Of a stretch of 57,898 nt of DNA, positions 2 through 17,762 are shown piece by piece. The DNA comes from Methylococcaceae bacterium TMED69 (GTDB lineage Bacteria; Pseudomonadota; Gammaproteobacteria; Ga0077536): NCBI GenBank assembly GCA_002170535.1, contig NHDW01000001.1, positions 1 through 57,898 of the forward strand. Direction: 5' to 3'. Positions within the stretch are counted from its first letter, which is position 1. The number at the start of each line of letters is the position of its first letter. The notes under the pieces are model-generated. The model saw only the letters and a list, made by a program, of their open reading frames with translations. It did no database searches and was not told the origin of the DNA. The position numbers and the translations under genes were made by a program.

Positions 2-91
2 CGCGCAGGGCGGCTTGCATATTTAGCGGGAAGAATGGAAAAGAAATATAACGCTGAGCCTTCATCACCAAATGAGGGTAAAATTGATTGA
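2..91 (+). CDS. thiG: Thiazole synthase ThiG, C-terminal fragment (cut by window start)
   Basis: Not in ORF track. Manual translation of 2..91 gives RAGRLAYLAGRMEKKYNAEPSSPNEGKID*, matching the ThiG C-terminus (AGRLAYLAGR...SSP); thiG-trmB is a familiar gammaproteobacterial gene order. Confidence 0.85.
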   Translation, partial: RAGRLAYLAGRMEKKYNAEPSSPNEGKID

Positions 92-794
92 AAGAATAGA
101 ACAACAACATATTGGTGGTAGTTCCACCAATAAAATTAGAAGCTTCGTGGTACGCTCAGGAAGGATAACAATTGCTCAAAATAGGGCTTTAGAACAGTTG
201 CTTCCAAAATATGCTAACCTCACAGAAATCCGAGAGCGCATTGAACATATTAAATCTACTGGTAATCAGGTAAACCTTGAAATCGGTTTAGGTGACGGTA
301 AAAATCTAATTCATATGGCTAAAGAAAATCCTAACAGCATATTTTTAGGGAGTGATGTTCATTTACCCGGTATTGGATCTACGCTTAACAGTCTTGAACT
401 GCACAATATAAATAATGTCAGGGTTTTAGTAGGGGACATAAATGACACTTTATTATCATTTGGACGGATATTTCAAAATATATTTATTTTTTTCCCGGAC
501 CCTTGGCCAAAAAAACGCCATAACAAACGGAGGCTTATAAACAGAGAGTTTTTAGATTTAATTGCAAAAAAAATAAAAGTTGATTGTAAGATTTATATAG
601 CAACAGATTGTAAGGATTATGCTACATCAATATTAAATGTGATTGAAATATCGAAAGAAATTGAAAATAGCGAAGGTTCTTGGCGGGTTTCGAAAAGGCC
701 GTCTTGGAGACTTTTGACAAAATTTGAGCGAAGGGCATTACAAGCAAACTCAAGAGTTTATGAAATTTGTTGTATCCCCAAAAATATTGATTAA
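72..794 (+). CDS. trmB: tRNA (guanine-N7)-methyltransferase TrmB
   Basis: IRSFVVRSGR, LEIGLGDG SAM motif, FFPDPWPKKRHNKRR, ATD, TKFERR. True start may be slightly downstream. Confidence 0.95.
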   Translation: MRVKLIERIEQQHIGGSSTNKIRSFVVRSGRITIAQNRALEQLLPKYANLTEIRERIEHIKSTGNQVNLEIGLGDGKNLIHMAKENPNSIFLGSDVHLPGIGSTLNSLELHNINNVRVLVGDINDTLLSFGRIFQNIFIFFPDPWPKKRHNKRRLINREFLDLIAKKIKVDCKIYIATDCKDYATSILNVIEISKEIENSEGSWRVSKRPSWRLLTKFERRALQANSRVYEICCIPKNID

Positions 795-2693: not shown

Positions 2694-4493
2694 TTAATTT
2701 TCTTTTATGAATTCTATCAAATTTTGCCCTTGAGTAACTTTATCACCAATTGCGACCGGTATTTCAAGAATTTCAAGATCTTCTTCTGCCAATACTTCGG
2801 TTTCCATTTTCATTGCCTCAAGGATTAATATCACCTGACCAGATTTTATTTTGTCTCCAGGTTTACATTTGATGTCAGTAATGCTCCCAGATAACGGGCA
2901 CTCGATAGTTGACTGGTTTGAACTTTTTCTACCTGCTATATTTTTGGCATTTTCTACTTTGAGTTCAAGATTATCCATTACCTCGACTTCAAAAATTCGT
3001 CCATTGACCTTAATATTATATTTTGATTGTTTCTGAAAATTGTTATTCGAATCATTAGTGATATTTGAATCTTTTGATTTTGAATCAGGGACTGGTTCAA
3101 ATGCATTTGGATTTTTTTTATTTTTAAAAAAATAAAGGGCTACTTGGGGAAAAAGAGCATAGGTTAGGATATCGTCAATTTTATCAGAGGATAAATTAAA
3201 ATTATTTCTCTCTTTTTCACTTAATAATTCGGTTTCTATTTTTTTGAGTTCTGGCTCTAGTAAGTCTGCGGGTCTACACGTGACTGGTTTGGCATCCCCT
3301 AGAACCTTGGCTTGGAGCGAGGAATTTACGGGTGACGGTGTAGCCCCATATTCCCCTTTTAATATTCCCTCAGTTTCTTTAGAGAGTTTATTATAGCGAC
3401 CCATCATAACATTCAACACGGCTTGTGTGCCTACGATTTGTGACGTAGGCGTTACTAACGGAATATTTCCTAAATCTTCTCTAACCTTAGGAATTTCTTT
3501 TAATACTTCGTCTAATTTATCTGATGCTGATTGTTCTTTAAGTTGATTTTCTAGATTCGTAAGCATGCCGCCTGGTACTTGGGCAACCAGTATTCTTGAG
3601 TCAACGCCTTTCAACGAGCCTTCAAATTTTTCATATTTTTTTCTGACCTTTTTAAAATAATCTGACACTTCCTCAATTAGTTGTATATTAAGGCCTGTGT
3701 CTCTTTCTGTGTTTTCTAATATTGAGACTAGAGATTCTGTAGGGGAGTGTCCATATGTCATACTCATGCTTGATACTGCGGTGTCTACATTATCTATACC
3801 TGCTTCAATACTTTTAAGATAAGTTGCTGTCGATAATCCAGTAGTGGCATGACTTTGCATGTGAATCGGTATACTGAGTTTTTCTTTAAGTTTACTTACT
3901 AAATCGAAAGCTACATATGGTTTTAATAAGCCAGCCATATCTTTTATACAAAGTGAATGAGCACCCATATCTTGTATTTGCTCTGCTAACGAGACCCATA
4001 AATCAATTGTATGAACCGGTGATACTGTATAGGAAATGGTCCCTTGAGCATGTTTTCCCATTTTTACCACTGCTTTAATGCTACTTTTCAGATTTCGAAG
4101 ATCATTAAGTGCATCGAATATTCTAAAAATATCTACTCCATTTGTTGCTGCTCGTTCAACGAATTTTGTTACAACGTCATCTGCGTAGTGTCTGTAACCT
4201 AAGATATTTTGCCCTCTGAACAACATTTGTTGAGGGGTTTTTGGCATCGCTTTTTTTAGTTGCCTGATTCTTTCCCAAGGGTCTTCACCTAGAAACCGAA
4301 TACAGGCATCGAAGGTGGCCCCACCCCAGCTCTCGATAGACCAGAACCCTATTTCATCTAGTTTTGAAGCAATTGGCAACATGTCTTCAGTTCTCATTCG
4401 GGTAGCAAAAAGAGACTGGTGAGCATCTCTTAACACTAACTCCGTTAGTCCTAATTTATTTTTCTTTTTCGATTTTTGCTCAGTGCTATTCAT
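2694..4493 (-). CDS. oadA: Oxaloacetate decarboxylase alpha subunit (carboxyltransferase + biotin carrier)
   Basis: [50 protein letters not shown]-terminal EAMKM biotinylation motif. Confidence 0.97.
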
Positions 4494-4701
4494 GATTTTT
4501 TGTTTCTCGAAATTTTGTGATGGCTAATGTAATCGCAGCTATAGTATCCAGATCTGTAGAATCATTAGATTGTTTATAATAGAGTTTTGAAGAGGTCGTT
4601 ATGATAAAAACCAAAAAGGTAAGGAAAAAACCGACCATACCCATTCCTGCTACTGCTAGTTTTATACCCTCGATAAGTATTTCTGCATTATCTGACTGCA
4701 T
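4486..4701 (-). CDS. oadG: Oxaloacetate decarboxylase gamma subunit
   Basis: Single TM helix (GMGMVGFFLTFLV) and IAAITLAI motif, directly upstream of oadA. Confidence 0.9.
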   Translation of the reverse strand: MQSDNAEILIEGIKLAVAGMGMVGFFLTFLVFIITTSSKLYYKQSNDSTDLDTIAAITLAITKFRETKNHE

Positions 4702-4711
4702 AAGTTTATTT

Positions 4712-5875
4712 TTACCCCAGTTTGTGTTGCACTAAGTTAACCCAGTAATTTATTCCCTGCGGAATGATTGTATCGTTAAAGTCATAGGTGGGGCTATGAA
4801 GCATACAGCCCCCTGTGGTATCTCCGTTACCTATTAATGCATAACAACCTTTTTTTTCTTCCAGCATAAAACCGAAATCTTCCGAACCGGTAACGGGCTC
4901 ACAATCTTCTTGTCCAGCGGCTGACCCATTTAACTTAGCAGCGACTTCCTTAACCATTTCGCTTTCTTTTTTTGAATTTATTGTAGGAGGGTATCTTTCT
5001 TCATATTTTAAATCAATGGTACAGTTGTTTGAAGCAGCGATAGCATTAGCTATATCTAACATTCTGCTTTTTACATATTGTTGATTGTTTTTGGAAAAAG
5101 TCCTTACAGTCCCACCAAATGATACAGTTTTAGGCATAACAGCCCAAGTATTACCTCCGATGATTTTAGTTACACTTAGGACAACGGAGTCAATTGGGTC
5201 TATGTTTCTTGACACGATGGTTTGCCAATTAAGAATTATAGAAGCGCTAGTTGTAATCGCATCATTTGAGAGATGGGGTAGCGCAGCATGCCCACCGTTC
5301 CCATTTATTGTAAGTTCGAATGTGTCAAAACCAGCCATGATTGGCCCTTTTCTAGTTTTTAGAATGCCAGATTTAAGATGAGGCCAATTATGAATTGCAA
5401 ATATGCTATCAATATTAAATTTTGCAAATAAGCCATCATCTATCATTGCTTTTGCTCCCGCCTCACCTTCTTCAGCGGGTTGGAAAATAAAAAAGACGGT
5501 ACCATTAAAAGCTTTAGATTTTGATAAGAATTCAGCTGCTCCAAGTAACATTGCTGTGTGTCCGTCGTGACCGCATGCATGCATGCATCCTGAATTTCTT
5601 GATTTGTGTGCAAAATTATTTTGTTCCAATATGGGGAGTGCATCCATATCTGCTCTTAAAGCAATATTATTCTGTCTCGTGCCAGTCTGAAGCACGCCTA
5701 CAACGCCAGTTTTACCTAGACCTCTATATGTTTTTATGCCAAAAGACTCGAGTTTTTCAGCTACAAAATTAGATGTTTCAATTTCTTTAAAAGCAAGTTC
5801 AGGAAATGAATGTAATTGTCGGCGCCATACTATGATTTTATCGATATTTTTTTCTATATACTTTTTTAATTCCAT
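4712..5875 (-). CDS. M20D family amidohydrolase (hippurate hydrolase-like)
   Basis: RRQLHSFPEL, LRADMDAL, MHACGHDGH, FQPAEEG, GSEDF, LHSPTYDFND. Confidence 0.93.
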   Translation of the reverse strand: MELKKYIEKNIDKIIVWRRQLHSFPELAFKEIETSNFVAEKLESFGIKTYRGLGKTGVVGVLQTGTRQNNIALRADMDALPILEQNNFAHKSRNSGCMHACGHDGHTAMLLGAAEFLSKSKAFNGTVFFIFQPAEEGEAGAKAMIDDGLFAKFNIDSIFAIHNWPHLKSGILKTRKGPIMAGFDTFELTINGNGGHAALPHLSNDAITTSASIILNWQTIVSRNIDPIDSVVLSVTKIIGGNTWAVMPKTVSFGGTVRTFSKNNQQYVKSRMLDIANAIAASNNCTIDLKYEERYPPTINSKKESEMVKEVAAKLNGSAAGQEDCEPVTGSEDFGFMLEEKKGCYALIGNGDTTGGCMLHSPTYDFNDTIIPQGINYWVNLVQHKLG

Positions 5876-5894
5876 TACTTAATCTTGCTCCAAT

Positions 5895-7140
5895 TTAAAA
5901 TTTTTGTCTATTTAATATAATGCTAGTCAAAAATCCAATTAAAGATATTATCCCTAAAAAATAAAAATAAAAACTATGTCCAGTAGTGCTCTCAAAAGAA
6001 TCGAGTATTCTCCCAGCTATTGGAGCGAAAAAAATATCTGGTGCAAATCCAACAACTGAAATCAATCCTACCAAGAAACCTGTATGTGCCATCGGCATTT
6101 TGGTTTCGCTTAATAGTGTAAAATAAACTCCTCTTAAGCCGAAGACAACTAGGGCAGAACTAGAGAGTGCAATCAGTATTATACTAATATTATGAGAATT
6201 ATCAGTTCCTAAACCAATCAAGAAAAAGTTTACTGATATAAAAAAGAAAGACAAGATAAGCACGATCGAGGGCTTTAATCTATTGGATAATAGACCGGCA
6301 AGAATTGCCCCTATAACCCTCAAATACGCGATTTTTGCTGCAATGCTCGCTGAATCTTGTGCGCTATAATTGTGTACTTCGTAAAGGTATAGCGAGAAGT
6401 GGTCAAGTCCCTTGTAACAGGCGTAACTTGATGCAACTATTAAGGCTTGCAGCCAAATAATTTTTTTTTTTCAATAGTTGAACCCTTTGAGGCAACTTAC
6501 TTATAGAGTCGTTTGTTTTAGTACTTGCGATTGCTGGAAGAAACAAATAAACAAAAAGTGCTGCGATAAAAGTCATAAAAATGTAAAAAATAATTACTTG
6601 TTCGATAGGTTGAAAGGATGAATATGGTTCGCTTAACTCAGCTACGTAGTTGCGAGAGAAAATTAAAACTCCCATTGATGCAACCAATGCCGCACATAAT
6701 CCCCTACCTCCATCTAAAAAGCCAAATGCTGTCCCTTGGTTTTGGCTTCCACCAATAAAACGAGTGCTTTTTATTAACGGTGACCAAAAAAGACAGATCG
6801 TACTTAAGCCCCAAAAACTATAAAGGGTTTTTAAATAAGTGATACTGGGATCTATCAATAAGACGAATCCTCCCGTTCCTGTAAGAACCAGCGATATAAT
6901 AATAAGGGTCTTTGGTTGAAATTTATCTGTAATTAGCGCCCCTAAAAAATATCCAAGAAATGCAGAAATTCCATAATAAAAAAAAACATCTCCTAACTCG
7001 GTATTGGATAGCCCATATGAAGATAAAAAAGAGGGTCTGAAGTATCTGGCAATATGAAAAGGAAGGCTAAAAATCATTTCACCCGCGATTATTAAGCTTA
7101 TGATTCCTATGAGCGATTGAAATTTTCTAGAGGATACCAT
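5895..7140 (-). pseudogene. MFS transporter split by a frameshift in an A11 homopolymer
   Basis: Two hydrophobic ORFs (6403..7140, 5895..6323). Removing one base from the run at 6461-6471 gives a continuous frame (...LLKKKIIWLQALIVASSYACYKGLDHFSLYL...AYLRVIGA...), ~414 aa. Could be a sequencing error in an intact gene. Confidence 0.85.
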
Positions 7141-7146
7141 TAATTT

Positions 7147-7563
7147 TTAAGAAACGTGCATTAATCCCGGATAAAGAGCGCGTAATTTGGCTGCTCTTGA
7201 TTTTGCCTCGTTTTCTGTTTGAAACTTTTCATTCTCAAATAAGCAGACGGGGATATTGGAGTCAACACATAACTGCCCAACAACATATTCTTTGTTATTT
7301 GGTCTCACCACCACATACCAGCCTTTCACTGGCCCTGTTTTATAGCTATTTAATTTATATAACAATTTAGCGAATTCACTATAGGGTCCATCTTCGTCTA
7401 TGAGTGGTGGAAACTCAATTTTATTAATTTCTTCTGAGTTAGACCACTGCCATTTCATAGAATCTGCGAAGTTCTTTTCTAGAGCTTGTCCGCCCCTGAG
7501 TTTTGGATGAATCCACCAGTAGTGGTCTTTCCCTTCGTGCTTATTTTTTTTATCCTCTGTCAT
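7147..7563 (-). CDS. Hypothetical protein; divergent paralog of the DMFase small subunit
   Basis: ATGA overlap with the large subunit stop. C-terminal ~70 aa align by eye with 9982..10416 (EYVVGQL/EYSIGLL; EKFQTENEAK/EKYPTREEAE). Confidence 0.65.
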   Translation of the reverse strand: MTEDKKNKHEGKDHYWWIHPKLRGGQALEKNFADSMKWQWSNSEEINKIEFPPLIDEDGPYSEFAKLLYKLNSYKTGPVKGWYVVVRPNNKEYVVGQLCVDSNIPVCLFENEKFQTENEAKSRAAKLRALYPGLMHVS

Positions 7564-9968
7564 GGAAGTTTCTTATATTTTAGGAACCCATCAATTATAT
7601 TCGTCATCATTGTTGATACATTATTATTGTAATTATTGTGTTGGAGAGAACCACACCACGTCATTGAGCCTACTGAGAAAACTGCGCCTTCGTTAGGCGT
7701 TTTAAAATAAACTATATCAGAACGGGTCCATGGATTGGTCTCACCTGTTCCGCCAGCGATATAGCCCCTAGCATTAAAAGTAACCTCCTCAGTTACTGAA
7801 ACATAGATGTCATTATGGCCTTCTGAGTGTGCTAGGAGAAAGGCGTTATGTGGTGTACCAAGTTCGAGATCGGCTCTGTCCAATTCTAGGCCCGCCGCGC
7901 CACCTCCAACCAGACCGAAATCACCTATTGGTTCATTCTTACCTATGCCTTTAAATATCCATCTACATTGTGGTAATTGACTATCGGGAGAGCGTCTGTA
8001 ATAAGACGAATAAGTTAATCCAAACGATGAAAAAGTATTACCCAAGAGTTTACTCATTACTCTTCCTCTGACTCTCCATAAACCGCCGTGCTTTCCGTCA
8101 AAGGCATTACAATATTCGCCTGGTGAGATCGTCCACGCTCGGGTTCCATTATCACCTTTACGTACTTCAATAATATTTGGGTTGTCTGGATGAGGAACAC
8201 AAATCCAATAAAATCCGTTTGCCGCGAGGTACATGAATCTTCCACCATGCATTTGATAATCATGATATGCAGTCATTTGTTCTTCGGACATATATTCTGG
8301 ATGGTGTCCCGTTAATACTATTTTATACTTATTTAAAAGCGAGGCGCCTTGTTGATGCACATCTTCATCGGTAAGAATATCTACTTTATATCCTTTCTCG
8401 TATAACCAATCTACTAAATGAAGATCAGCATTAAATTGCCAAAGAGAAGGTGATAGTACATGTAAATATTTCGGACGCATGTTGAGTATTGGTCGAAGTC
8501 TGGAAGAAACGTTGACTCCCCATCCGTCTCGATAACTCGTATAGGTTCCTAAACCATAGCCACGTTCTTTGTTGAGTAATAGATCTTCTGGTTGTAGTAA
8601 AGGTATTTGACCGGTCAAAAGTTCAGCGATAACTGAGTTTACACTTAAGTTATCATTAGCGTAAGCCATGTAACTATGAGTTGCCATTACCAGAGCAATC
8701 TCAGCAGGTTGATCGTCGGGAGAGGGTTTGACAAAGAATGGAATATAATCCTCATGATCGGGGGTCGATTTTCCTTTAACTCTGATTCTTGCCGCGTAAA
8801 CCCCGCTTTCTAAATTTTTTGGGATTTTAAAACTAAAAGATGGTGACCATCTAGCATCATCAACGGATTCGTCATGGAAATGAATTGCTCCATATTCTTG
8901 AGGACCGTGCGTAAAGCTCATATAATCGGATGACCAATTAAAACCGGGGGTTCCCCTAACCGGCATGTTGACCCCTATAGCGTGTAGCTTATTAGGAGTC
9001 ATTTCTGGGACATGAGTTGACGCAGCATTTTTTCCAATATTTTCAGAAAAGTCCCAGAAAGCTGTAAGTAATTCCTTTATTTCATTTGGAAGGGACTCTA
9101 TTTTTTGCTGTCCTAAAACCATGTTAATAGTTTCTTCTCTGACTGCTGAGTTAAATAATCTAGGCCTTTCTATTTTTCCGTTGTATTTTTGAAAATGTTC
9201 AGGTATTTCCACAGGGCTATCGAGTTGCTTGAAATGGTCTCCATGGATGGTTCGTCCAGAGCTAATATTTAAAGTATTAGCTGCCATTAAGAGCGGGGCT
9301 TTGTTTGTTCCTAAAGCCTGCTTGGATGTTTTGAAAATTTTGCTGTCATTTGTATCTTCTTTTGGATGAAGCATACTCATACCGTGTCCGCCATTTGTAA
9401 TACTTACATAGGCTTGCTGGCTAACTGAAACTTCACCGGTTTTTGAGTTAAAACTTGCATAAACTCTATACCAAACTTTTCTGAAGAGAGGTTTTGATAG
9501 GGAAAAAATTTCTGTTTTACCCTTGCCTCTGCCAACTTTGAATTCTAAAGATCCAGACTTGTTTATGAACAGACCGAACCCCATTTGTTTCTTGTTATCC
9601 CATTTTGTGATTAGTCCCTGCTCTCCAACTTCTACTCCCTCAACATCGGTAATAGGAGTGGTTGGATAGATATAAGCGCACACGGTAATATCGTCACAAT
9701 CTAGCTTTTTGTTGTGAGGGACTATTAGGTAACTTCCGGCCATTAATGGTTGATGTTTTCCCTTGTAAACCTTATTGGCTTTGTTTCTAATTATCTTTTC
9801 TTTTAATCCCGGTCCTTCTGGATTCGTATCGCCATTAATTAATCGGACAATATCTGATTTATAACTTTCCCCGAATTCTGAGTGAACAAAAAAAGTGATT
9901 TCTTCATCTTTTGTTACAGCGGTTTTGTCGGTATATCCAGTAACCCTTAGTATCTGCTCCTGTTTCAT
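7560..9968 (-). CDS. dmfA2: N,N-dimethylformamidase-family large subunit
   Basis: N-terminal ...GDTNPEGPG, LamG-like insert, YGAIHFHD, SGVYAAR, SYMAYAN, RPILNMRP, GHHPEY, ANGFYW, AAGLELDR, GAVFSVGS; 802 aa. Confidence 0.92.
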   Translation of the reverse strand: MKQEQILRVTGYTDKTAVTKDEEITFFVHSEFGESYKSDIVRLINGDTNPEGPGLKEKIIRNKANKVYKGKHQPLMAGSYLIVPHNKKLDCDDITVCAYIYPTTPITDVEGVEVGEQGLITKWDNKKQMGFGLFINKSGSLEFKVGRGKGKTEIFSLSKPLFRKVWYRVYASFNSKTGEVSVSQQAYVSITNGGHGMSMLHPKEDTNDSKIFKTSKQALGTNKAPLLMAANTLNISSGRTIHGDHFKQLDSPVEIPEHFQKYNGKIERPRLFNSAVREETINMVLGQQKIESLPNEIKELLTAFWDFSENIGKNAASTHVPEMTPNKLHAIGVNMPVRGTPGFNWSSDYMSFTHGPQEYGAIHFHDESVDDARWSPSFSFKIPKNLESGVYAARIRVKGKSTPDHEDYIPFFVKPSPDDQPAEIALVMATHSYMAYANDNLSVNSVIAELLTGQIPLLQPEDLLLNKERGYGLGTYTSYRDGWGVNVSSRLRPILNMRPKYLHVLSPSLWQFNADLHLVDWLYEKGYKVDILTDEDVHQQGASLLNKYKIVLTGHHPEYMSEEQMTAYHDYQMHGGRFMYLAANGFYWICVPHPDNPNIIEVRKGDNGTRAWTISPGEYCNAFDGKHGGLWRVRGRVMSKLLGNTFSSFGLTYSSYYRRSPDSQLPQCRWIFKGIGKNEPIGDFGLVGGGAAGLELDRADLELGTPHNAFLLAHSEGHNDIYVSVTEEVTFNARGYIAGGTGETNPWTRSDIVYFKTPNEGAVFSVGSMTWCGSLQHNNYNNNVSTMMTNIIDGFLKYKKLP

Positions 9969-9981
9969 TTACAGTCTCCAA

Positions 9982-10416
9982 TTAGTCGGTGATTCCATAT
10001 TCTCTACAGAGGGCTTTGACCCTTTTTTTAAATATTGCATGCTCCGCCTCTTCTCTAGTTGGATATTTCTCTCTCAATATCTTTACTACTCCTCCTCTTC
10101 GTCCGGGCAATAAACCAATTGAATATTCTGCCCAAGGAATTGTTTCAACAATAGTGTGTTTTCCGGTCTGAGGTCTAGTTCTCAGAAAATCAACTAGTTG
10201 AGCTAATACGCTACTTTGCAGTGGCGGCGGAGTGCCAGGTAAAGTTGGCCCGCCTCTTGGGAAGCGTTGGTGTTCATCGATCAAGGCTTGTCTTTTTTGT
10301 TTATTTCTGAGGTGTTCAAGCAGATAGGTTCTAACATTGTAGTCATTTACTGCATTAAAAGAATAGTTTTGCTTTATGTCAGCTCCCTGCGATTTTCCAT
10401 TATTGGATTTTGCCAC
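9982..10416 (-). CDS. dmfA1: N,N-dimethylformamidase-family small subunit
   Basis: LIDEH..., S..LAQLVDFLR, GKH, PWAEY, GRRG, TREEAEHAIFKKR; immediately upstream of the large subunit; GTG start with AGGGG RBS. Confidence 0.85.
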   Translation of the reverse strand: MAKSNNGKSQGADIKQNYSFNAVNDYNVRTYLLEHLRNKQKRQALIDEHQRFPRGGPTLPGTPPPLQSSVLAQLVDFLRTRPQTGKHTIVETIPWAEYSIGLLPGRRGGVVKILREKYPTREEAEHAIFKKRVKALCREYGITD

Positions 10417-10554
10417 GACACTGTCCCCTCTTTTGCACTATTTTGAGATTTAGTCTGATTGTGTTCTATAGACAATTATAAAATAAATTAACTAGAATAT
10501 CTTCATCAAGATGAATGTTAACTGGTATTTAGTTCGCCGTGAGATCGACGTATA

Positions 10555-11808
10555 ATGATTAAGATAACAAAAACGTCCAATGATAGATCGAGAAATTTTA
10601 TGAATTATGCAAATATCAACGAAAAACCAGAACATATTAAGAAACGGTTACTTGATTTTATGGAAAAATCAATTTACCCGAATGAACATAACTATACCGG
10701 TCATTTGAAAAATGCTGAAAATCGATTTTCAGCCGTACCGATAGTCGAGGATCTCAAAACGAAAGCCAAAGAACAAGGTTTATGGAATCTTTTCGTTCCT
10801 AAGCAATTTGGAGGTCTTTCAAACTTTGACTATGCTTCATTAGCAGAAATTATGGGAAGAGTTCTATGGAGCTCGGAAGTGTTTAATTGTAATGCGCCAG
10901 ACACAGGAAATATGGAAGTGTTTATGAAATACGGCGACCAACAACAACGCGAGACGTGGCTAAAACCCTTGCTAAACGGAGAAATTAGGTCGTCCTATGT
11001 GATGACAGAGCCGGATGTCGCATCTAGTGATGCTACTAATGTAAGGACGACTATTCTAAGGGAAGGCGATGAATATGTTATAAATGGGAAAAAGTGGTTC
11101 ATCACCAATGCGATGTATGAAAAGACAGAAATATTCATTGTAATGGGGAAATCCGACCCCGATAACGAAAACAGGCACTTACAACAAAGTCAGATTTTAG
11201 TTCCTAAAAACACTAAAGGCATAAAAATTATAAGAGCTTTGACCACACTTGGATATGATGATGCTCCTCATGGACATGCTGAAGTTCACTTCGAAGATGT
11301 AAGAGTTCCGGTTGAAAATATGCTGCTTGGCGAGGGCAGAGGCTTCGAAATTGCCCAAGGTAGGTTAGGGCCTGGTAGAATTCATCACTGCATGAGATTG
11401 ATTGGGGCTGCGCAACGAGCAATGGAATTAGCTTGTAAGCGTGCAGTTTCGAGAGAGACTTTTGGCAAAAAACTTGCTGACCATCAATCAGTTAAAGAAG
11501 ATATTGCTTGTTCCTATGCGGAATTAGAGCAAGCGCGTCAATTGACGCTTTTAACGGCTAAAAGGATGGACGAAGTAGGTCCTAAAGAAGCGCGGGACCT
11601 AATTGCTGCCGCTAAGATAGCTGTGCCAATTTCTGTCCAAAATATAATAGACCGATGCATGCAGATACATGGAGCTGGAGGATTAACAGAAGATTATTTC
11701 ATGGCAGATGCGTTCAATTATGCCAGATACTGCCGCCAAGCTGATGGCCCTGATCAGGTTCATATGATGTCACTTGGCAAACAGATTATAAAAAGATATG
11801 GCAGTTAG
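10555..11808 (+). CDS. Acyl-CoA dehydrogenase (ACAD10/11-like)
   Basis: GLWNLF, FNCNAPDTGNMEV, MTEPDVASSDATN, GRLGPGRIHHCMR, ADGPDQVH. Start is probably the ATG near 10600. Confidence 0.93.
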   Translation: MIKITKTSNDRSRNFMNYANINEKPEHIKKRLLDFMEKSIYPNEHNYTGHLKNAENRFSAVPIVEDLKTKAKEQGLWNLFVPKQFGGLSNFDYASLAEIMGRVLWSSEVFNCNAPDTGNMEVFMKYGDQQQRETWLKPLLNGEIRSSYVMTEPDVASSDATNVRTTILREGDEYVINGKKWFITNAMYEKTEIFIVMGKSDPDNENRHLQQSQILVPKNTKGIKIIRALTTLGYDDAPHGHAEVHFEDVRVPVENMLLGEGRGFEIAQGRLGPGRIHHCMRLIGAAQRAMELACKRAVSRETFGKKLADHQSVKEDIACSYAELEQARQLTLLTAKRMDEVGPKEARDLIAAAKIAVPISVQNIIDRCMQIHGAGGLTEDYFMADAFNYARYCRQADGPDQVHMMSLGKQIIKRYGS

Positions 11809-11819
11809 TCGAAATAAGG

Positions 11820-12341
11820 TCAATCTGCTTTTAATAACTCTTTATTAAATCTTTTAAAATTTAATATATAGTTAGAAGCTGATTTTTTTAAGCCAGTTAT
11901 TTGTTCATCGGTTAGTTGCCTAATAACTTTACCGGGGCTACCCATAACGAGGCTTCTATCGGGAATGCTCTTACCTTCTGGAATCAACGTGCAGGCGCCA
12001 ATAAGACAATCATTACCAATAGTAGCGCCATTTAAAATTACTGAATTGATACCAATTAGGCTATTATTTCCTATGGTACACCCATGTAGCATTACTTTAT
12101 GCCCTATAGTACACCCTTTCCCTACTTTTAATGGAAAACCAAAATCAGTGTGGAGGACAGAAAGGTCTTGTACATTTGTTCCTTCGCCTATGCTGATTGT
12201 TTCGTTATCTCCCCTTAGAATACTCCCGAACCATATGCTAGCGTTTTTCTCGAGTATTACTTTACCAATTACCACTGCAGTTTCGGCTATAAAACAGTCT
12301 CCTTTTATCACAATATTGTCTTCATTGAGTCGATACTTCAT
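11820..12341 (-). CDS. Gamma-carbonic anhydrase family protein (YrdA/PaaY-like)
   Basis: Hexapeptide repeats; [24 protein letters not shown] (three His ligands). Confidence 0.93.
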
Positions 12342-12429
12342 TCAGTGATGAACCTCTTGTTGCCGGAAATTTTAAAGTCGTAATTTAACATGATAGATTA
12401 GTATTGATAATAGTAGCTTAAAAAATTTT

Positions 12430-13593
12430 ATGTTTTACAATTTTTTGAAGACTGATTTCGGAACTTTCAGCCTGATTTGGTCGAGAAATCATCTATATGC
12501 ATTAGAATTACCGCCTTTTACGCCTACGTTCTTAATCAACAACTGTAAGAATAAGTATAAGAATATAGAAAACAAAAGTTTTAATAGATACATTCAATCT
12601 GTAGCTGAACAATTAGTGCGATATCTGGAGAATCCCAAGGCTGTAAATCTTGAACTCGATCAAGACGTTGGTACTCAATATACTGATTTTCAAAAGGATG
12701 TCTTCACCGCCGTAAAAAAAATCCCCTCAGGACAAACTAAATCTTATCAAGACCTCGGCCATGAGATAGGGCTATTAAATGGAGGTCGCGCTATAGGTCG
12801 TGCTTTGAGTCAAAATTTGACTCCTTTATTCATTCCCTGTCACAGAGTAATAAGTTCGAATAAAAGCATAATTGGGTACTCACCAGAGGGCGGCAAATTT
12901 TGGCAAGAATTACTTCTTTATCGGGAGTCTGGAAGAGTTTTTTCAAATAATGCAATAGAAGAAATTATTAAGGGCTCAATTTATCTGGCCAAACATGACA
13001 GAAAGTTAAGAAAAATAATACATTTTCATGGCCCTGCTGCTCTCGCGATCGGGAAAAAACGAACTCTTTTTCAAATGTTAGTAAGAACTATAATTGGACA
13101 ACAATTAAGTGTAAAAGCTGCTCAGTCAATATATCAAAAACTCTCTAGTCTTCTAATTGGTAGGGTGAATCCTAAGCGGTTTGTCAATTTAAATAGAGAG
13201 CAACTAAGACAATGTGGTCTATCAAGGAATAAGATAGAGACGTTAATAAAAGTAGCACGGTTATTTCTCGAAAAAGGGTTTCCAAGTGAAAGCTTATTAG
13301 AATCGTTTTCTGATGAAGAAGTGGAGTATTTGTTGATCCAAATTAAAGGCATAGGTAAGTGGACTTGCGATATTGTGAAATTATTTCATTTGCGCCGGTT
13401 TGATACCTTTCCTGCAGGCGACTTGGGTGTAAGAAATGGTTTTAAAAATTACTATGGGTTTGATATTGATTCTAGAAAAGCGAAGAAAATAACAAACACT
13501 TGGTCTCCATTCAGAGGAATAGCTTGTTGGTATTTGTGGAGGTTGGCTGAATATACCGTTTCTGATTTAGAGTTTATTGACAAATTAAACTAA
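12430..13593 (+). CDS. Fusion: O6-methylguanine-DNA methyltransferase (Ogt) + AlkA-type 3-methyladenine DNA glycosylase
   Basis: N-half: TDFQKDVF, IPSGQTKSY, RAIGRAL, IPCHRV. C-half: IIGQQLSVKAA, HhH IKGIGKWT, FPAGDLG, WSPFRG. Confidence 0.88.
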   Translation: MFYNFLKTDFGTFSLIWSRNHLYALELPPFTPTFLINNCKNKYKNIENKSFNRYIQSVAEQLVRYLENPKAVNLELDQDVGTQYTDFQKDVFTAVKKIPSGQTKSYQDLGHEIGLLNGGRAIGRALSQNLTPLFIPCHRVISSNKSIIGYSPEGGKFWQELLLYRESGRVFSNNAIEEIIKGSIYLAKHDRKLRKIIHFHGPAALAIGKKRTLFQMLVRTIIGQQLSVKAAQSIYQKLSSLLIGRVNPKRFVNLNREQLRQCGLSRNKIETLIKVARLFLEKGFPSESLLESFSDEEVEYLLIQIKGIGKWTCDIVKLFHLRRFDTFPAGDLGVRNGFKNYYGFDIDSRKAKKITNTWSPFRGIACWYLWRLAEYTVSDLEFIDKLN

Positions 13594-14799
13594 ATTATTT
13601 TCGATCTGCACCCTAAGAAGATTAAGTGCAGTGATTACGCTAAATTGCGATACTCTCACTCCATCTCCAGGTAATTTCATTGCTTCTTCAATTAGAATGT
13701 TGTTACTTGAAATTGCGAGATAATTGACTCCTTCCTTCTCAGAATATGTTATTGCTAAACCGATGTCTGAATCGAAAAAATTTCTTACTGCATCTGCTAG
13801 TCTCTTTGTCTCAGAAAAATCACTTTCTTTTTGGGTATGTTGTAATAATTGATGTTTAGATAATTGAGATTTCGGAATTATACAGCCTTTAAAATACTTT
13901 CCAAGAGAATCAACCTTACCCAATCTGGTTGACGCAAGACCATCTGTTGCGATTTCTACGGCCGAGAGTGTAAGGTTTTTATCTTGAAGGTTTTTTAAAA
14001 TCCTTTGTTCAATAGTTTCACTATTAACGCCGAAAACAACATCACCGATGATAGATCTAATATGTTTCTCTTCATTGTCTAATTGCTGTGCAATTTCTTC
14101 TTCAGTTTCTCCCTTCACTGTTATCCTAAGTTTCAGTCCCTCTATGCCAGATGCTAGAAAAGCGAGAGTGGTATTTTGGGATTCATTAAGTTGCTCGATT
14201 TTAGGTTCTAGTAATTCAGCAAGTTTAGATTCTGTGTGACCCCAGGTTCGAAGGGTTCGGCTTTTAATTATTGTGGTTGAGCCTGATCTTTTTTTCAGGT
14301 CTGGCAGTATAGTTGACCGCATTATTTGTTTTAATTCATAAGGAACTCCTGGAACTGCGTAAATCACTTTATTTTTAAAAGGGAAAAGGATTCCCGGCGC
14401 GGTCCCAGGTTGATCTTCTATAGCAATACCTCCTTTTGGTATCATTGCTTGCTTAAGGTTGTTTTGGGTCATATGTCTTCCGCGTGACGAAAACATATAC
14501 TCGATTTTCTCTGCAACTTTTTCATTTAAAATTAATTTCGAATCAGTGGCCTTGGCTATAGCCTCTCGAGTGATGTCGTCTTGAGTTGGACCAAGGCCGC
14601 CACAGCAAATGATTGCGTCACTTCTTGATAGAGCCAATTTAAGAGCGTCGACTATTCTTTCTTCGTTGTCACCAATTTTCGATTGATAATAATTATCAAC
14701 TCCTATTAAAGCCAAATTCTCCCCGAGCCAGGAAGAGTTCGTATCTTGAATTTGACCTAATAATAGTTCTGTACCAATAGCAATTATTTCACACTGCAC
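13585..14799 (-). CDS. cinA: CinA family protein (MoCF/COG1058 domain + degenerate PncC-like domain)
   Basis: IAIGTELLLG, DTNS, GGLGPTQDDIT, GTAPG, PGVPYE; C-terminal domain lacks AESCTGG. Confidence 0.9.
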   Translation of the reverse strand: MQCEIIAIGTELLLGQIQDTNSSWLGENLALIGVDNYYQSKIGDNEERIVDALKLALSRSDAIICCGGLGPTQDDITREAIAKATDSKLILNEKVAEKIEYMFSSRGRHMTQNNLKQAMIPKGGIAIEDQPGTAPGILFPFKNKVIYAVPGVPYELKQIMRSTILPDLKKRSGSTTIIKSRTLRTWGHTESKLAELLEPKIEQLNESQNTTLAFLASGIEGLKLRITVKGETEEEIAQQLDNEEKHIRSIIGDVVFGVNSETIEQRILKNLQDKNLTLSAVEIATDGLASTRLGKVDSLGKYFKGCIIPKSQLSKHQLLQHTQKESDFSETKRLADAVRNFFDSDIGLAITYSEKEGVNYLAISSNNILIEEAMKLPGDGVRVSQFSVITALNLLRVQIENNLV

Positions 14800-14837
14800 A
14801 ATTGATTCTCTTTAAAGTTTTTGCTGAATAAAGTCTG

Positions 14838-14866
14838 AGTATATAATTTTTTTTTTTTTTAGACCA
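14838..14866 (-). promoter_or_regulatory. Putative cinA sigma70 promoter with A14 tract in the spacer
   Basis: Minus strand TGGTCT (14866-14861), 17 bp, TATACT (14843-14838); T14 run at 14847-14860 on the plus strand. Confidence 0.4.
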
Positions 14867-14994
14867 TGGGTAATCGATTTATTTAAAGTTGGATAACTAC
14901 TGTTTTTGCCGGTTGCCCGTCTGGCTATTGATATATGTAATGTTAATTTTACAACTACGAATTTTCATCACATAATAAAGCTAAATTATGATTT

Positions 14995-16800
14995 TTGGTA
15001 AAGGAGCGTGGCTTGTCAGTTTACAAAACACCGTTGCAGGACACTCTATTTATATTTAATGATGTCCTAAATCTAAATAAATATCTTGGGAGGGGCGCTT
15101 TTGCTGACTTATCAGTTGAGGATGTTTTAATTATCTTGGAACAAGGTAGTAAATTCGTTGAGGATAAAATTTACCCTTTGAATAAACTTGGTGATCACCA
15201 CGGTTGTGTTTTGAATCAGGACCATAGCGTTTCCACTCCTCCTGGTTTCAAGCAGGTTTATCAAGAGTTTTGTAATGGAGGATGGAATAAACTTAGTGCG
15301 CCTCAAGAATTTGGTGGACAAGGCTTGCCGACTATCATATCAACTGCATTTGAAGAATATAGTATTTCAGCAAACATGGCCTTTTCTATGTATCCAGGTT
15401 TAACACAAGATGCGGTTTTAACGATTGCAACAGTTGGCGATCCTTTACAGAAAAAGACTTATTTGCCAAAAATGGTAGAAGGTGTCTGGTCGGGCACTAT
15501 GAATTTAACTGAACCACAATGCGGTACAGATCTCGGTTTGACGAAAACTAGCGCGGTTTTGCAAGAGGATGGGACTTATAAAATAACAGGTAGCAAAATT
15601 TTTATATCATCTGGAGAGCATGACTTAACCGAGAATATCATCCATCTAGTATTAGCCAGAATTCCCGATTCACCTGCTGGTACGAAAGGTCTTTCAATGT
15701 TCATAGTGCCGAAATTTATCGTTGATGAGAATGGGAACTTGGTGTCACGCAATAATTTGAAATGCATGAATGTTGAGAAAAAAATGGGCATACATGGTAA
15801 CGCAACTTGTGAGATCTTATATGATGAGGCGCAAGGTTTTTTGATTGGAGAAAAGAATAAAGGTCTTAACTCAATGTTTGTGATGATGAACATTGCGCGA
15901 CTTCAGACAGGTATGCAAGGTCTCGCTATTTCTGAACTGGCTAGGCAAAAAGCAATTGATTATAGTCGGTTGAGGAAGCAAGGAAGGGACAGAAGTGGGG
16001 CGGGTGGATCAATACCCATCATTGACCATGCTGACATAAAAAGGATTTTAGCTGGTATCAGTGCGTTCACGGAAGGAGCAAGAGCTGTTGCTTTGTGGAC
16101 TGCTTTCTTAATGGACCTAGAGGAAGAAAATTTTGAATCAGTGACAAATGCAGAAGCTAAACAGTTGGTGGGGTTTCTTACACCAATAATTAAAGCTTAC
16201 TTTACGGATAATGCTTTTTTTAAAGCGAGTGATGCACTTCAATGTTTTGGAGGGTACGGTTATATAAAAGATTATGAAATAGAGCAATTAGTACGCGACG
16301 TTAGGGTAGCAATGATTTATGAAGGAACAAATAGCATCCAAGCTATGGATTTAGTTTTTAGAAAAGTACTTTTGGATAATGGTGAGTCTATAGAATTGAT
16401 CGGTCGATTAATAGAAAATCTGGCCGCTGATAGTTATTCAGTCAAAAATAGAAAAATTTTTGATTTGCTTAGTTCTGCACTTATGCATTTGAACGAAGCG
16501 ACGACTTGGCTCAGAGAAAAATCTGCTCAAAATGAGATGAAGTTAATTGAATCCACCGCAGTGTATTTTCTTAGATTGTGCGGGCATGTGATATTTGGCT
16601 ATATTTGGTTGCGAATTATGATAGCCGCCTCAAAGCTCGATACTGTTGACGAAATAAATAACAGATTTGCCAAAAAAAAATTGGCTACCGGCGAGTTTTT
16701 CTTTTATCAAGTTCTATCCGAATCTGGTTTCCTGCTTAAAAATATAAAGAATAGTAACGCTAATCTTCTCGGAGATGTTATTTCAGATGGAATCGCCTAG
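14995..16800 (+). CDS. Acyl-CoA dehydrogenase, DmdC-like long family
   Basis: GTMNLTEPQCGTDLG, KIFISSGEHDLTENIIHLVLAR, EKKMGIHGNATC, IYEGTNSIQAMDL. Start is probably the TTG near 15013 after AAGGAG. Confidence 0.9.
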   Translation: MVKERGLSVYKTPLQDTLFIFNDVLNLNKYLGRGAFADLSVEDVLIILEQGSKFVEDKIYPLNKLGDHHGCVLNQDHSVSTPPGFKQVYQEFCNGGWNKLSAPQEFGGQGLPTIISTAFEEYSISANMAFSMYPGLTQDAVLTIATVGDPLQKKTYLPKMVEGVWSGTMNLTEPQCGTDLGLTKTSAVLQEDGTYKITGSKIFISSGEHDLTENIIHLVLARIPDSPAGTKGLSMFIVPKFIVDENGNLVSRNNLKCMNVEKKMGIHGNATCEILYDEAQGFLIGEKNKGLNSMFVMMNIARLQTGMQGLAISELARQKAIDYSRLRKQGRDRSGAGGSIPIIDHADIKRILAGISAFTEGARAVALWTAFLMDLEEENFESVTNAEAKQLVGFLTPIIKAYFTDNAFFKASDALQCFGGYGYIKDYEIEQLVRDVRVAMIYEGTNSIQAMDLVFRKVLLDNGESIELIGRLIENLAADSYSVKNRKIFDLLSSALMHLNEATTWLREKSAQNEMKLIESTAVYFLRLCGHVIFGYIWLRIMIAASKLDTVDEINNRFAKKKLATGEFFFYQVLSESGFLLKNIKNSNANLLGDVISDGIA

Positions 16801-17632
16801 TTCTCAGGTTTACTATTCGCAAAGATTAAGGCTCCAATATGTTGAATGGGGTAAAAAAACAAATCCACCAATCATACTTGTACATGGTGGCCGCGACCAT
16901 GCAAGAAGTTGGGATTGGGTTGCTCGGAGTTTGTCCAAAGATTGGCGTGTGCTTGCTCCTGATCTCCGTGGTCATGGAGACAGTGAATGGGTAAATGATG
17001 GAAACTACCAAATGGCTGGTTACTTGTACGACTTAGATCAGTTGATTTGTCAACAGTTATCTACCCCGGTCAACTTAGTGGCCCATTCTTTAGGGGCAAT
17101 GATCGCTTTAAGATATGCAGGATTGTATCCCTCAAAAATCGGCAAGCTTATAGCCATTGAGGGTCTAGGGTTACCGAATGAAAAACCTTTAATAAATCGC
17201 CTAGACACGTGGATTTCTCAAAGACACTTGTTATCAAGCAGGAATGAAAAAAGATATGAAAATTTTGACGACGCGGTTAGTCGTATGATGGCCGCGAATT
17301 CGCATTTGTCCTACGAGACAGCTGAGCATTTAACACGACACGGCGTCAGACAAAACGAAGATGGGACTTATTCTTGGAAATTCGATAACTACATTCGGAG
17401 TTGGCCAGCATATGACATGCCACAAGAGTTGATAAACAAGCTTTGGTCGCAAATAACTTGCCCCACACTTTTAGTAGGTGGTAGAGATAGTTGGCATGAA
17501 GATCCCTCCATAACTGGCCGCACTAAGTTTTTCAAAGATGTGAAAGTGAAGCTTTTCGATAAAGCCGGACACTGGGTGCATCATGATAGACGTGAAGATT
17601 TTATCATGTTAGTCCAAGATTTTCTCGGATAG
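16775..17632 (+). CDS. Alpha/beta hydrolase
   Basis: HGGRDH, DLRGHGDS, AHSLG nucleophile elbow, AGHWVHHD. Confidence 0.92.
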   Translation: MLFQMESPSSQVYYSQRLRLQYVEWGKKTNPPIILVHGGRDHARSWDWVARSLSKDWRVLAPDLRGHGDSEWVNDGNYQMAGYLYDLDQLICQQLSTPVNLVAHSLGAMIALRYAGLYPSKIGKLIAIEGLGLPNEKPLINRLDTWISQRHLLSSRNEKRYENFDDAVSRMMAANSHLSYETAEHLTRHGVRQNEDGTYSWKFDNYIRSWPAYDMPQELINKLWSQITCPTLLVGGRDSWHEDPSITGRTKFFKDVKVKLFDKAGHWVHHDRREDFIMLVQDFLG

Positions 17633-17638
17633 AGATTT

Positions 17639-17670
17639 AAAAAGCCCCGCCGTCACTAAGACAGCAGGGC
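17639..17670 (-). terminator. Rho-independent terminator of the sRNA
   Basis: GCCCUGCUGUC-UUAGU-GACGGCGGGGC (11 bp including two G-U) followed by UUUUU. Confidence 0.85.
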
Positions 17671-17727
17671 GAGGAGGGGAGGTACCAAAGTTAGGATTCA
17701 GGGGAGGAGAATTGCCTAACGTTGATG
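17639..17727 (-). ncRNA. Putative trans-acting small RNA with two anti-SD motifs (MmgR/suhB- or AbcR-like architecture)
   Basis: Minus strand: stem GUUAGG-CA-AUUC / GAAU-CCUAAC with loop UCCUCCCCU; linker UUUGGUACCUCCCCUCCUC; 11-bp terminator plus U5; sigma70 promoter directly upstream. GC-rich island within AT-rich DNA. Confidence 0.75.
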
Positions 17728-17733
17728 CAATGC

Positions 17734-17762
17734 AGTATAACCAACGGAATGCGGCGGTGCAA
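17734..17762 (-). promoter_or_regulatory. Sigma70 promoter for the sRNA
   Basis: TTGCAC (17762-17757), 17-bp spacer, TATACT (17739-17734). Confidence 0.7.

Follow-up and report, generated by a model that had tools for sequence, protein, structure and literature searches.

A coupled, strictly linked paralog of the small subunit as a possible third subunit in a marine branch of the dimethylformamidase family

The stretch of DNA considered here, hereafter the window, comprises 57,898 nucleotides (nt) of Methylococcaceae bacterium TMED69 (contig NHDW01000001.1, assembly GCA_002170535.1). Its minus strand carries a tightly packed gene string, in which the small- and large-subunit genes of an enzyme of the dimethylformamidase (DMFase) type are followed by a third small gene, the subject of this work, and then by genes for a major facilitator superfamily (MFS) transporter and an M20-family amidohydrolase (Table 1). 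The original prediction, made from the sequence alone, held that the large gene is flanked by the canonical small-subunit gene and by an open reading frame (ORF) of 138 amino acids (aa) coupled to it through an ATGA overlap, and all three genes are indeed found on the minus strand where it had placed them. The large ORF aligns over its full length with the large subunit of the Paracoccus DMFase (6lvb_A, E 6.8e-162) and matches Pfam PF20254 (DMFA2_C) over the cut-off (7.3e-87). Using the list of iron ligands and catalytic residues taken from PMC7686228, window residues Y436, Y476 and E558 align with the Paracoccus Fe ligands Y399, Y440 and E521, and H556 and N584 correspond to H519 and N547, the catalytic His and Asn; all five window residues are invariant or nearly so across 29 large-subunit relatives. 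The small ORF is matched to the Paracoccus small subunit by phmmer (6lvb_B, E 5.4e-5, residues 36-136), and 25 of its 27 database homologs carry PF26354 in the precomputed Pfam assignments. The junction between the large and third genes reads ...CTT CCA TGA, the ATG of the third gene beginning one base before the stop codon, which produces the overlap of 4 nt. A scan for promoters and terminators was not used, as its counts did not exceed those obtained with shuffled sequence.

The third ORF is a real, conserved gene. Its product has 13 homologs in a collection of 5.8 billion proteins, and among 1.84 billion representatives the profile of the third family recovers 52 clusters (50% identity), every match being at most 231 aa long. 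Scanning with an alignment of the third protein, one genome per species, yielded 40 loci, mostly from uncultured Gammaproteobacteria and including one Rhodobiaceae and one Rhodospirillales record. In all 40 the large-subunit gene lies directly upstream, always ends in TGA and overlaps the third gene in an NTGA junction, the start codon of the latter being ATG in 17 cases, GTG in 15, TTG in 8 and CTG in none. The canonical small subunit is present in each of the 31 loci whose contig extends past the start of the large gene, the remaining nine contigs ending within that gene. The linkage of homologs to DMFase-like genes, proposed as a check in the original prediction, is thus seen in 40/40 neighbourhoods, with the order small-large-third wherever it can be judged (31/31). 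A second cassette lies within 6 kb in seven loci.

On the same contig as the window cassette, at a distance of about 74 kb, the genome holds a second one of small-large-third order. It belongs to the second of the two types, A and B, into which the enzymes are divided below; its third gene is separated from the large gene by a gap of 14 nt in place of the overlap, and the encoded protein is devoid of the Trp-rich N-terminal motif found in the window protein. Another type-B large gene (L050, G304:C152, 587..5462) is preceded by a gene for a 646-aa sodium:solute symporter and not by a small-subunit gene; the beginning of a small subunit (57% identity to type B in a 37-residue alignment) is found behind the third gene, where the contig ends, so gene order can differ. 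The C-terminal extension of this symporter was considered as a fused small subunit and ruled out.

Outside chromosomes, a search of a plasmid collection found the third protein on two plasmids only, both of Aminobacter niigataensis, where it is encoded just downstream of a large-subunit match; the Aminobacter large subunits are 62-64% identical to that of the window. The one region inspected in detail, on plasmid p1 of strain DMFA1 (L046, NZ_CP132959.1), shows the order small-large-third. There the cassette (5739..17759) lies on a conjugative plasmid, with a flotillin gene upstream and a branched-chain-type ATP-binding cassette (ABC) importer downstream, and both small genes are annotated as hypothetical protein. 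We take the name of the strain, and the name only, as an unconfirmed hint at a degrader of dimethylformamide. As for RNA, contigs of at least 99% identity from four seawater libraries of two studies cover parts of all three window genes. One is internal to the third gene (7388-7533), and the small/large junction is spanned by two others; none bridges the large/third junction, one reaching about 10 nt into the third gene, and none falls over 6300-7300. These contigs establish presence in the libraries and are no proof of transcription, since RNA libraries can contain DNA.

The relationship of the third protein to the small subunit lies beyond pairwise comparison, BLASTP of the two ORFs giving no alignment at E <= 100, and is seen at the level of families. 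Profile-profile comparison with 20 small-subunit rows gave P 0.035 for 14 third-protein rows and P 0.0013 for 66. When the small-subunit alignment was enlarged to 28 rows by type-B, Aminobacter and Paracoccus small subunits, hhalign against the 66 rows returned a probability of 93.0% (E 3.4e-7, score 49.3, 60 columns), and 94.4% in a repeat. Every profile-profile run placed the two families in the same register, residues 60-122 of the third protein against 67-126 of the small subunit, and residue for residue this is the alignment that had originally been drawn by eye. As null controls, the reversed small-subunit alignment scored 16.1 (P 0.067), against 48.8-49.3 for the real pair, and the best of 20 column shuffles scored 13.2 (P >= 0.2). 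Searches with hidden Markov models (HMMs) cross the family boundary in both directions. Among the 1,217 ORFs of the fetched loci, the sole match of the small-family HMM other than small subunits is the third protein of the second cassette (E 9.2e-4); the extra matches of the third-family HMM at E <= 0.02 are all small subunits; and the third protein of another genome matches the small-subunit HMM at 2.9e-5. A sequence intermediate between the families and linking both was met in genome G361 (L048, contig C31, 3979..4287, minus strand), where a short small subunit of 103 aa, encoded upstream of a 745-aa large subunit without a third gene, matches the small HMM at 1.2e-10 and the third HMM at 2e-8.

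Structural models point the same way. For the AlphaFold model of the window protein (mean predicted local distance difference test, pLDDT, 71.9), VIA-align ranked 6lvb_B first of 48,161 solved chains, superposing residues 76..136 on 74..131 of the chain (57 aligned, root-mean-square deviation [rmsd] 4.1 Å) with a Z of 4.1, which is weak and tied with lower rows. The model of a type-B third paralog, 26% identical to the window protein and of higher confidence (pLDDT 86.5), again ranked 6lvb_B first of 48,161, with Z 7.3, rmsd 2.6 Å and 58 aligned residues, the runner-up having a Z of 5.7. In the ESM Atlas, the clusters nearest to the third protein are PF26354 DMF_alpha (score 0.90, 25/30 matches), which is a lead only. 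PF26354 is assigned to none of the 13 third-protein homologs in the precomputed Pfam, and the local Pfam copy gives no match even for the true small subunit, so that it provides no test of the third protein. Two other resemblances were treated as chance: immunoglobulin CH3 matches of the third protein (phmmer against PDB, best E 0.0035), because the family profile did not reproduce them, and a match to the oligonucleotide/oligosaccharide-binding-fold family PF21189, which at E 0.0077 is below the cut-off. Judged from profiles and models, then, the C-terminal half of the small subunit has in the third protein a true paralog, though a very distant one. The region common to both is confined to the C-terminal 65 residues or so; hhalign detects no similarity between the N-terminal halves (P 0.6), and the invariant E48, H49 and P53 of the small subunit (the E-H...P motif) have no counterpart in the third protein.

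Within the third family, the conserved core consists of the C-terminal 75 residues approximately, with the motif FAKxLYKLNGYRPGPVxGWYVV...WAVGQLxADP..PVQLF...E..AR..A..LR. In the model of the window protein this region is folded as helix 62-71, strands 77-86, 93-100 and 106-114, and helix 117-130. The set conserved over the whole family (66 rows) is N72, G77, A65, L68, Y83, V95, Q97, P105, A120 and A124, and no His, Cys, Asp or Glu reaches 90% in it. A second motif, DxxWWxHPxxRGxQ, is restricted to the main clade. It lies in the Trp-rich N-terminus which had been noted as peculiar to the third ORF, and which is conserved: D13, W16, W17, H19 and P20 each reach at least 90% in the 25-row type-A alignment. 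The motif is present in type-A third proteins and absent from type-B ones, and residues 1-33 have pLDDT <50 in the model. Type-A proteins also conserve D101 and E117, in addition to D13 and H19. Some third proteins, from Alphaproteobacteria (L030 5914..6564, L038 5962..6615) and metagenomes (P0012, P0043), bear a conserved C-terminal extension of 40-90 residues that reads ...ERK..E.IELERQYR.RLAGF...

The distribution of the gene was followed in a class sample of 401 genomes, 17 of which have a PF20254 match, a tally that includes the genome of the window (G000) and an unpublished genome (G039) that served for this count alone. Third genes were found in two of the 15 other PF20254-bearing genomes searched, a third, weak match being a small subunit. 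In a quick maximum-likelihood tree of 44 hand-chosen large subunits with midpoint root, the 33 third-bearing enzymes form one side of a branch with an SH-aLRT (Shimodaira-Hasegawa-like approximate likelihood ratio test) support of 99; 26 of them, including that of the window, are of type A and seven of type B. In all 33, domain II contains a conserved insert some 20 residues long, which is missing from the 11 that have no third gene (that of Paracoccus plasmid pAMI2 and 10 of the class sample), and the residues between positions 194 and 263 of the window large subunit number 69-71 in the former versus 36-51 in the latter. Because the 33 fall on one side of the tree and all carry the insert, the third gene and the insert are taken, on these alignments, to have arisen once, before the A/B duplication. 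The clade occurs mainly in uncultured marine and freshwater Gammaproteobacteria, and also in some Alphaproteobacteria and on the Aminobacter plasmid.

Table 1. Features of the DMFase-type cassette and of its neighbourhood in the window; the last row refers to the second cassette of the same genome and is numbered in its own region.
Feature	Coordinates	Strand	Remarks
Canonical DMFase-type small (alpha) subunit gene	9982..10416	-	144 aa, GTG start
DMFase-type large (beta, catalytic) subunit gene	7560..9968	-	802 aa
Clade-specific domain-II insert, large subunit residues ~236-259	9192..9263	-	SGRxxxGxHFxxLxxPxEIPxH
ATGA overlap, large-subunit stop / third-gene start	7560..7563	-	translational coupling
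Third gene, diverged small-subunit paralog	7147..7563	-	138 aa
N-terminal Trp-rich motif of third protein, residues 13-25	7489..7527	-	DHYWWIHPKLRGG
C-terminal small-subunit-like domain of third protein, residues 60-133	7165..7386	-	helix, three strands, long helix
MFS transporter gene	5895..7140	-	Pfam MFS_1; 6 nt after third gene, frameshifted
M20-family amidohydrolase gene	4712..5875	-	Peptidase_M20 2.3e-43; TIGR01891 2.4e-106
Second cassette, type B, region L005 (G000:C10:76000-92000)	5579..8796	-	136, 785, 130 aa

The genes around the cassette depend on the clade. An MFS gene follows the third gene in 13 of the 40 loci. That of the window has a frame switch near 6463-6470 that splits it into ORFs of 245 and 142 aa; it is intact (414 aa) in a locus 91-95% identical (L006), and the break reflects either decay to a pseudogene or a mistake in the assembly. 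The M20 gene occurs in 12/40 loci and is a variable neighbour, outside the constant core; others are enoyl-CoA hydratase plus EthD (12 loci) and short-chain dehydrogenases/reductases (12 loci). Beyond the M20 gene of the window, the string continues gaplessly (2694..4701, minus strand) into genes for a membrane protein of 71 aa and for a protein of 599 aa which, from its sequence, looks like a carboxyltransferase of the oxaloacetate-decarboxylase-alpha or pyruvate-carboxylase-B type with a biotinyl domain. Marine clusters in which biotin-dependent carboxylases occur close to DMFase genes are mentioned in PMC10308929. On the other side, an acyl-CoA dehydrogenase gene (10555..11808, plus strand) is divergent from the small-subunit gene and is kept in 11/40 loci.

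The reference for any interpretation is the DMFase of Paracoccus, an active iron enzyme which, according to PMC7686228, was purified with two kinds of subunit. Its description as a two-gene alpha2beta2 enzyme in the original prediction agrees with that source and with the annotation of pAMI2. The same source describes the small subunit as non-catalytic, as required for activity and stability, as contacting mostly domain III, and as helping to form the entrance of the active site; its N-terminal helix is wedged between two large subunits, and without it the large subunit shows no activity and reduced stability (PMC7686228). The third protein resembles the small subunit of Paracoccus sp. DMF (DmfA1, 6LVB chain B, PF26354) in being encoded beside the large subunit and in its C-terminal helix, strands and long helix, with the common signature D/N-x2-R/K-x2-P-x2-G ... 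Y/W-x-I/V-G-x-L ... Y/F-x-T ... A. It differs in an unrelated N-terminal half, in not keeping K86, H126, F129 and R132, in the position of its gene, which comes after the large gene in 40/40 loci whereas the small gene comes before it, and in its coexistence with a true DmfA1 in every judgeable locus. The dmfA1-dmfA2 pairs of Paracoccus aminophilus pAMI2 and Paracoccus sp. DMF (alpha2beta2 or (alpha2beta2)2) are similar to the window cassette in that the small subunit lies upstream, and the window large subunit, which matches theirs over its full length, has the same iron ligands and catalytic His and Asn residues. However, the pAMI2 large subunit is about 38% identical to that of the window and has no domain-II insert, and no homolog of the third gene was found on that plasmid, where an unrelated hypothetical gene and an insertion sequence element come after dmfA2. 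Another kind of comparison is offered by the activators of nitrile hydratases, small proteins encoded just downstream of the enzyme genes; those of the cobalt enzymes resemble a structural subunit and act by subunit swapping. The third protein would be similar to them in being small, downstream and subunit-like, but it has no sequence relation to them, and the domain shared by the third family is without conserved metal-ligand residues.

The third gene is real, paralogous to the small-subunit gene, strictly linked and coupled to the large-subunit gene, of single origin and always found with a canonical small subunit. Binding of its product to the enzyme, the stoichiometry, the binding site and the effect on activity are what we infer. 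The most likely function, to which we assign a probability of about 0.5, is that of a non-catalytic third subunit, gamma, in an iron amidase of the alpha-beta-gamma type. Since the third gene always travels with the enzyme, the marine branch of DMFases probably needs three proteins instead of two. A plausible course of events would begin with an ancient duplication of the small-subunit gene, followed by strong divergence in which only the C-terminal domain was kept and the N-terminal half was replaced by an unrelated arm, which in type A is rich in Trp and predicted to be disordered when alone. Translation of the third gene would reinitiate where that of the large gene stops, so that its product would be made together with the catalytic subunit. 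The protein may then dock on the large subunit by means of its small-subunit-like domain, on a surface other than the one used by the small subunit and possibly on the clade-specific insert of domain II, and there, like the small subunit, it might lend the assembly stability or influence how the buried 2-Tyr-1-Glu iron site is reached.

Several observations weigh against this assignment. The loci were retrieved with the third protein as query, and unlinked copies missed by the search patterns are not visible in them, so the survey shows that the third gene needs the enzyme and not the converse. The correlation between insert and gene is a single event in one clade and counts as one observation, which makes the insert only a candidate docking site. 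Across the same loci, identities are 35-50% for the third protein, 50-69% for the small subunit and 64-74% for the large one, and such faster evolution would also suit a transient factor. The third protein is devoid of the invariant K86, H126, F129 and R132 of the small subunit, and the known interface of the latter cannot simply be assumed for it. None of the 52 representative matches is a fusion to the large or small subunit, nor did any fusion turn up among proteins of 383-2000 aa, where the absence is weak evidence. Finally, Foldseek gave no match at E <= 0.001 for either third model; its top rows are double-stranded-RNA-binding domains and RelE/HigB-type toxins at E >=0.1, and the DMFase small subunit 6lvv_B appears at rank 29 (E 0.91). 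Of the check suggested originally, the profile-profile part was positive and the Foldseek part gave no significant match. The prediction of a complex between large and third proteins from separate alignments scored 0.00 in both runs and weighs neither way on binding.

The original prediction had left three functions side by side: a third subunit, an alternative small subunit and a metal-loading accessory. Of these, the third subunit would best fit the obligate co-occurrence and the conserved coupling. The metal-loading idea is part of a broader and still tentative possibility, the main rival of the third subunit though rated as rather unlikely: that the protein is a transient assembly or maturation factor, a mimic of the small subunit that holds the new large subunit until iron or the small subunit has been loaded and that no longer forms part of the mature enzyme. 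Such a factor might well be homologous to a structural subunit, be encoded immediately downstream of the large gene and diverge faster than both subunits, and the residues D13, H19, D101 and E117 conserved in type A could bind metal. Because of these residues and of the faster evolution, this explanation is kept in consideration. Assembly is moreover a real problem for DMFases, as follows from the inactivity and lower stability of the Paracoccus large subunit alone (PMC7686228). On the other hand, no potential ligand reaches 90% in the domain shared by the whole family, which also weakens the idea of a metal-loading accessory, type-B proteins are without the His-containing N-terminal motif, and subunit swapping serves only as an analogy. 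Furthermore, the Paracoccus enzyme is active with two kinds of subunit, as described in PMC7686228, and no third-gene homolog was found beside dmfA1A2 on pAMI2, which argues that the family as a whole has no need for a chaperone.

It seems improbable that the protein is an adaptor whose C-terminal domain grips the amidase while the basic, Trp-rich arm at its N-terminus anchors the enzyme to the membrane or links it to the adjacent importer. A transporter does lie beside the cassette in several clades (MFS in 13/40 loci, a symporter in one genome, an ABC importer plus flotillin in Aminobacter), PMC10308929 places a DMFase gene in flotillin-rhodopsin clusters, and the arm is conserved in spite of being disordered in the model. 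However, the adjoining transporter varies by clade and is replaced in 12 loci by enoyl-CoA hydratase and EthD, type-B proteins have no Trp-rich motif, no transmembrane or lipid-binding element is predicted in the third protein, and no fusion to a transporter was found. Should the adaptor be correct nonetheless, the small-subunit fold would act as a handle that can be reused for docking on the catalytic subunit, and these widespread marine iron amidases would be uptake-hydrolysis machines acting on a natural amide. Least probable of all, and very unlikely in our view, is that the protein serves as an alternative small subunit, taking the place of the canonical one in part of the complexes to change specificity or regulation. 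The C-terminal domain common to both proteins and the location of the Paracoccus small subunit at the substrate entrance (PMC7686228) would agree with it; nevertheless, both genes belong to one operon in 31/31 judgeable loci, and they are therefore made together and not as alternatives. In addition, the third protein has neither the N-terminal half that holds the wedging helix in Paracoccus nor the invariant residues of the small subunit, and this part of the original prediction is accordingly disfavoured.

With the third, non-catalytic subunit as the preferred assignment, the cassette probably represents a three-gene branch of the DMFase family, beyond the two-gene enzyme described so far. 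No mention of a third DMFase gene or subunit was found in the available parts of the dimethylformamidase literature (PMC7686228, PMC10308929, PMC9477243 and 10.1101/2021.03.18.435917), subscription journals being mostly outside this scope. DMFase has been described until now as a two-protein iron enzyme acting on a man-made solvent. An entire clade of related enzymes has in addition a third component, obligately linked and descended from the small subunit. As a practical consequence, the expression or characterisation of enzymes of this clade from two genes may fail or mislead. Proteins reported as DmfA have been recorded in ocean metaproteomes, according to PMC9477243, and the three-gene finding bears on the natural substrates of these proteins. 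Finally, the fold of the small subunit emerges as a duplicable docking module.

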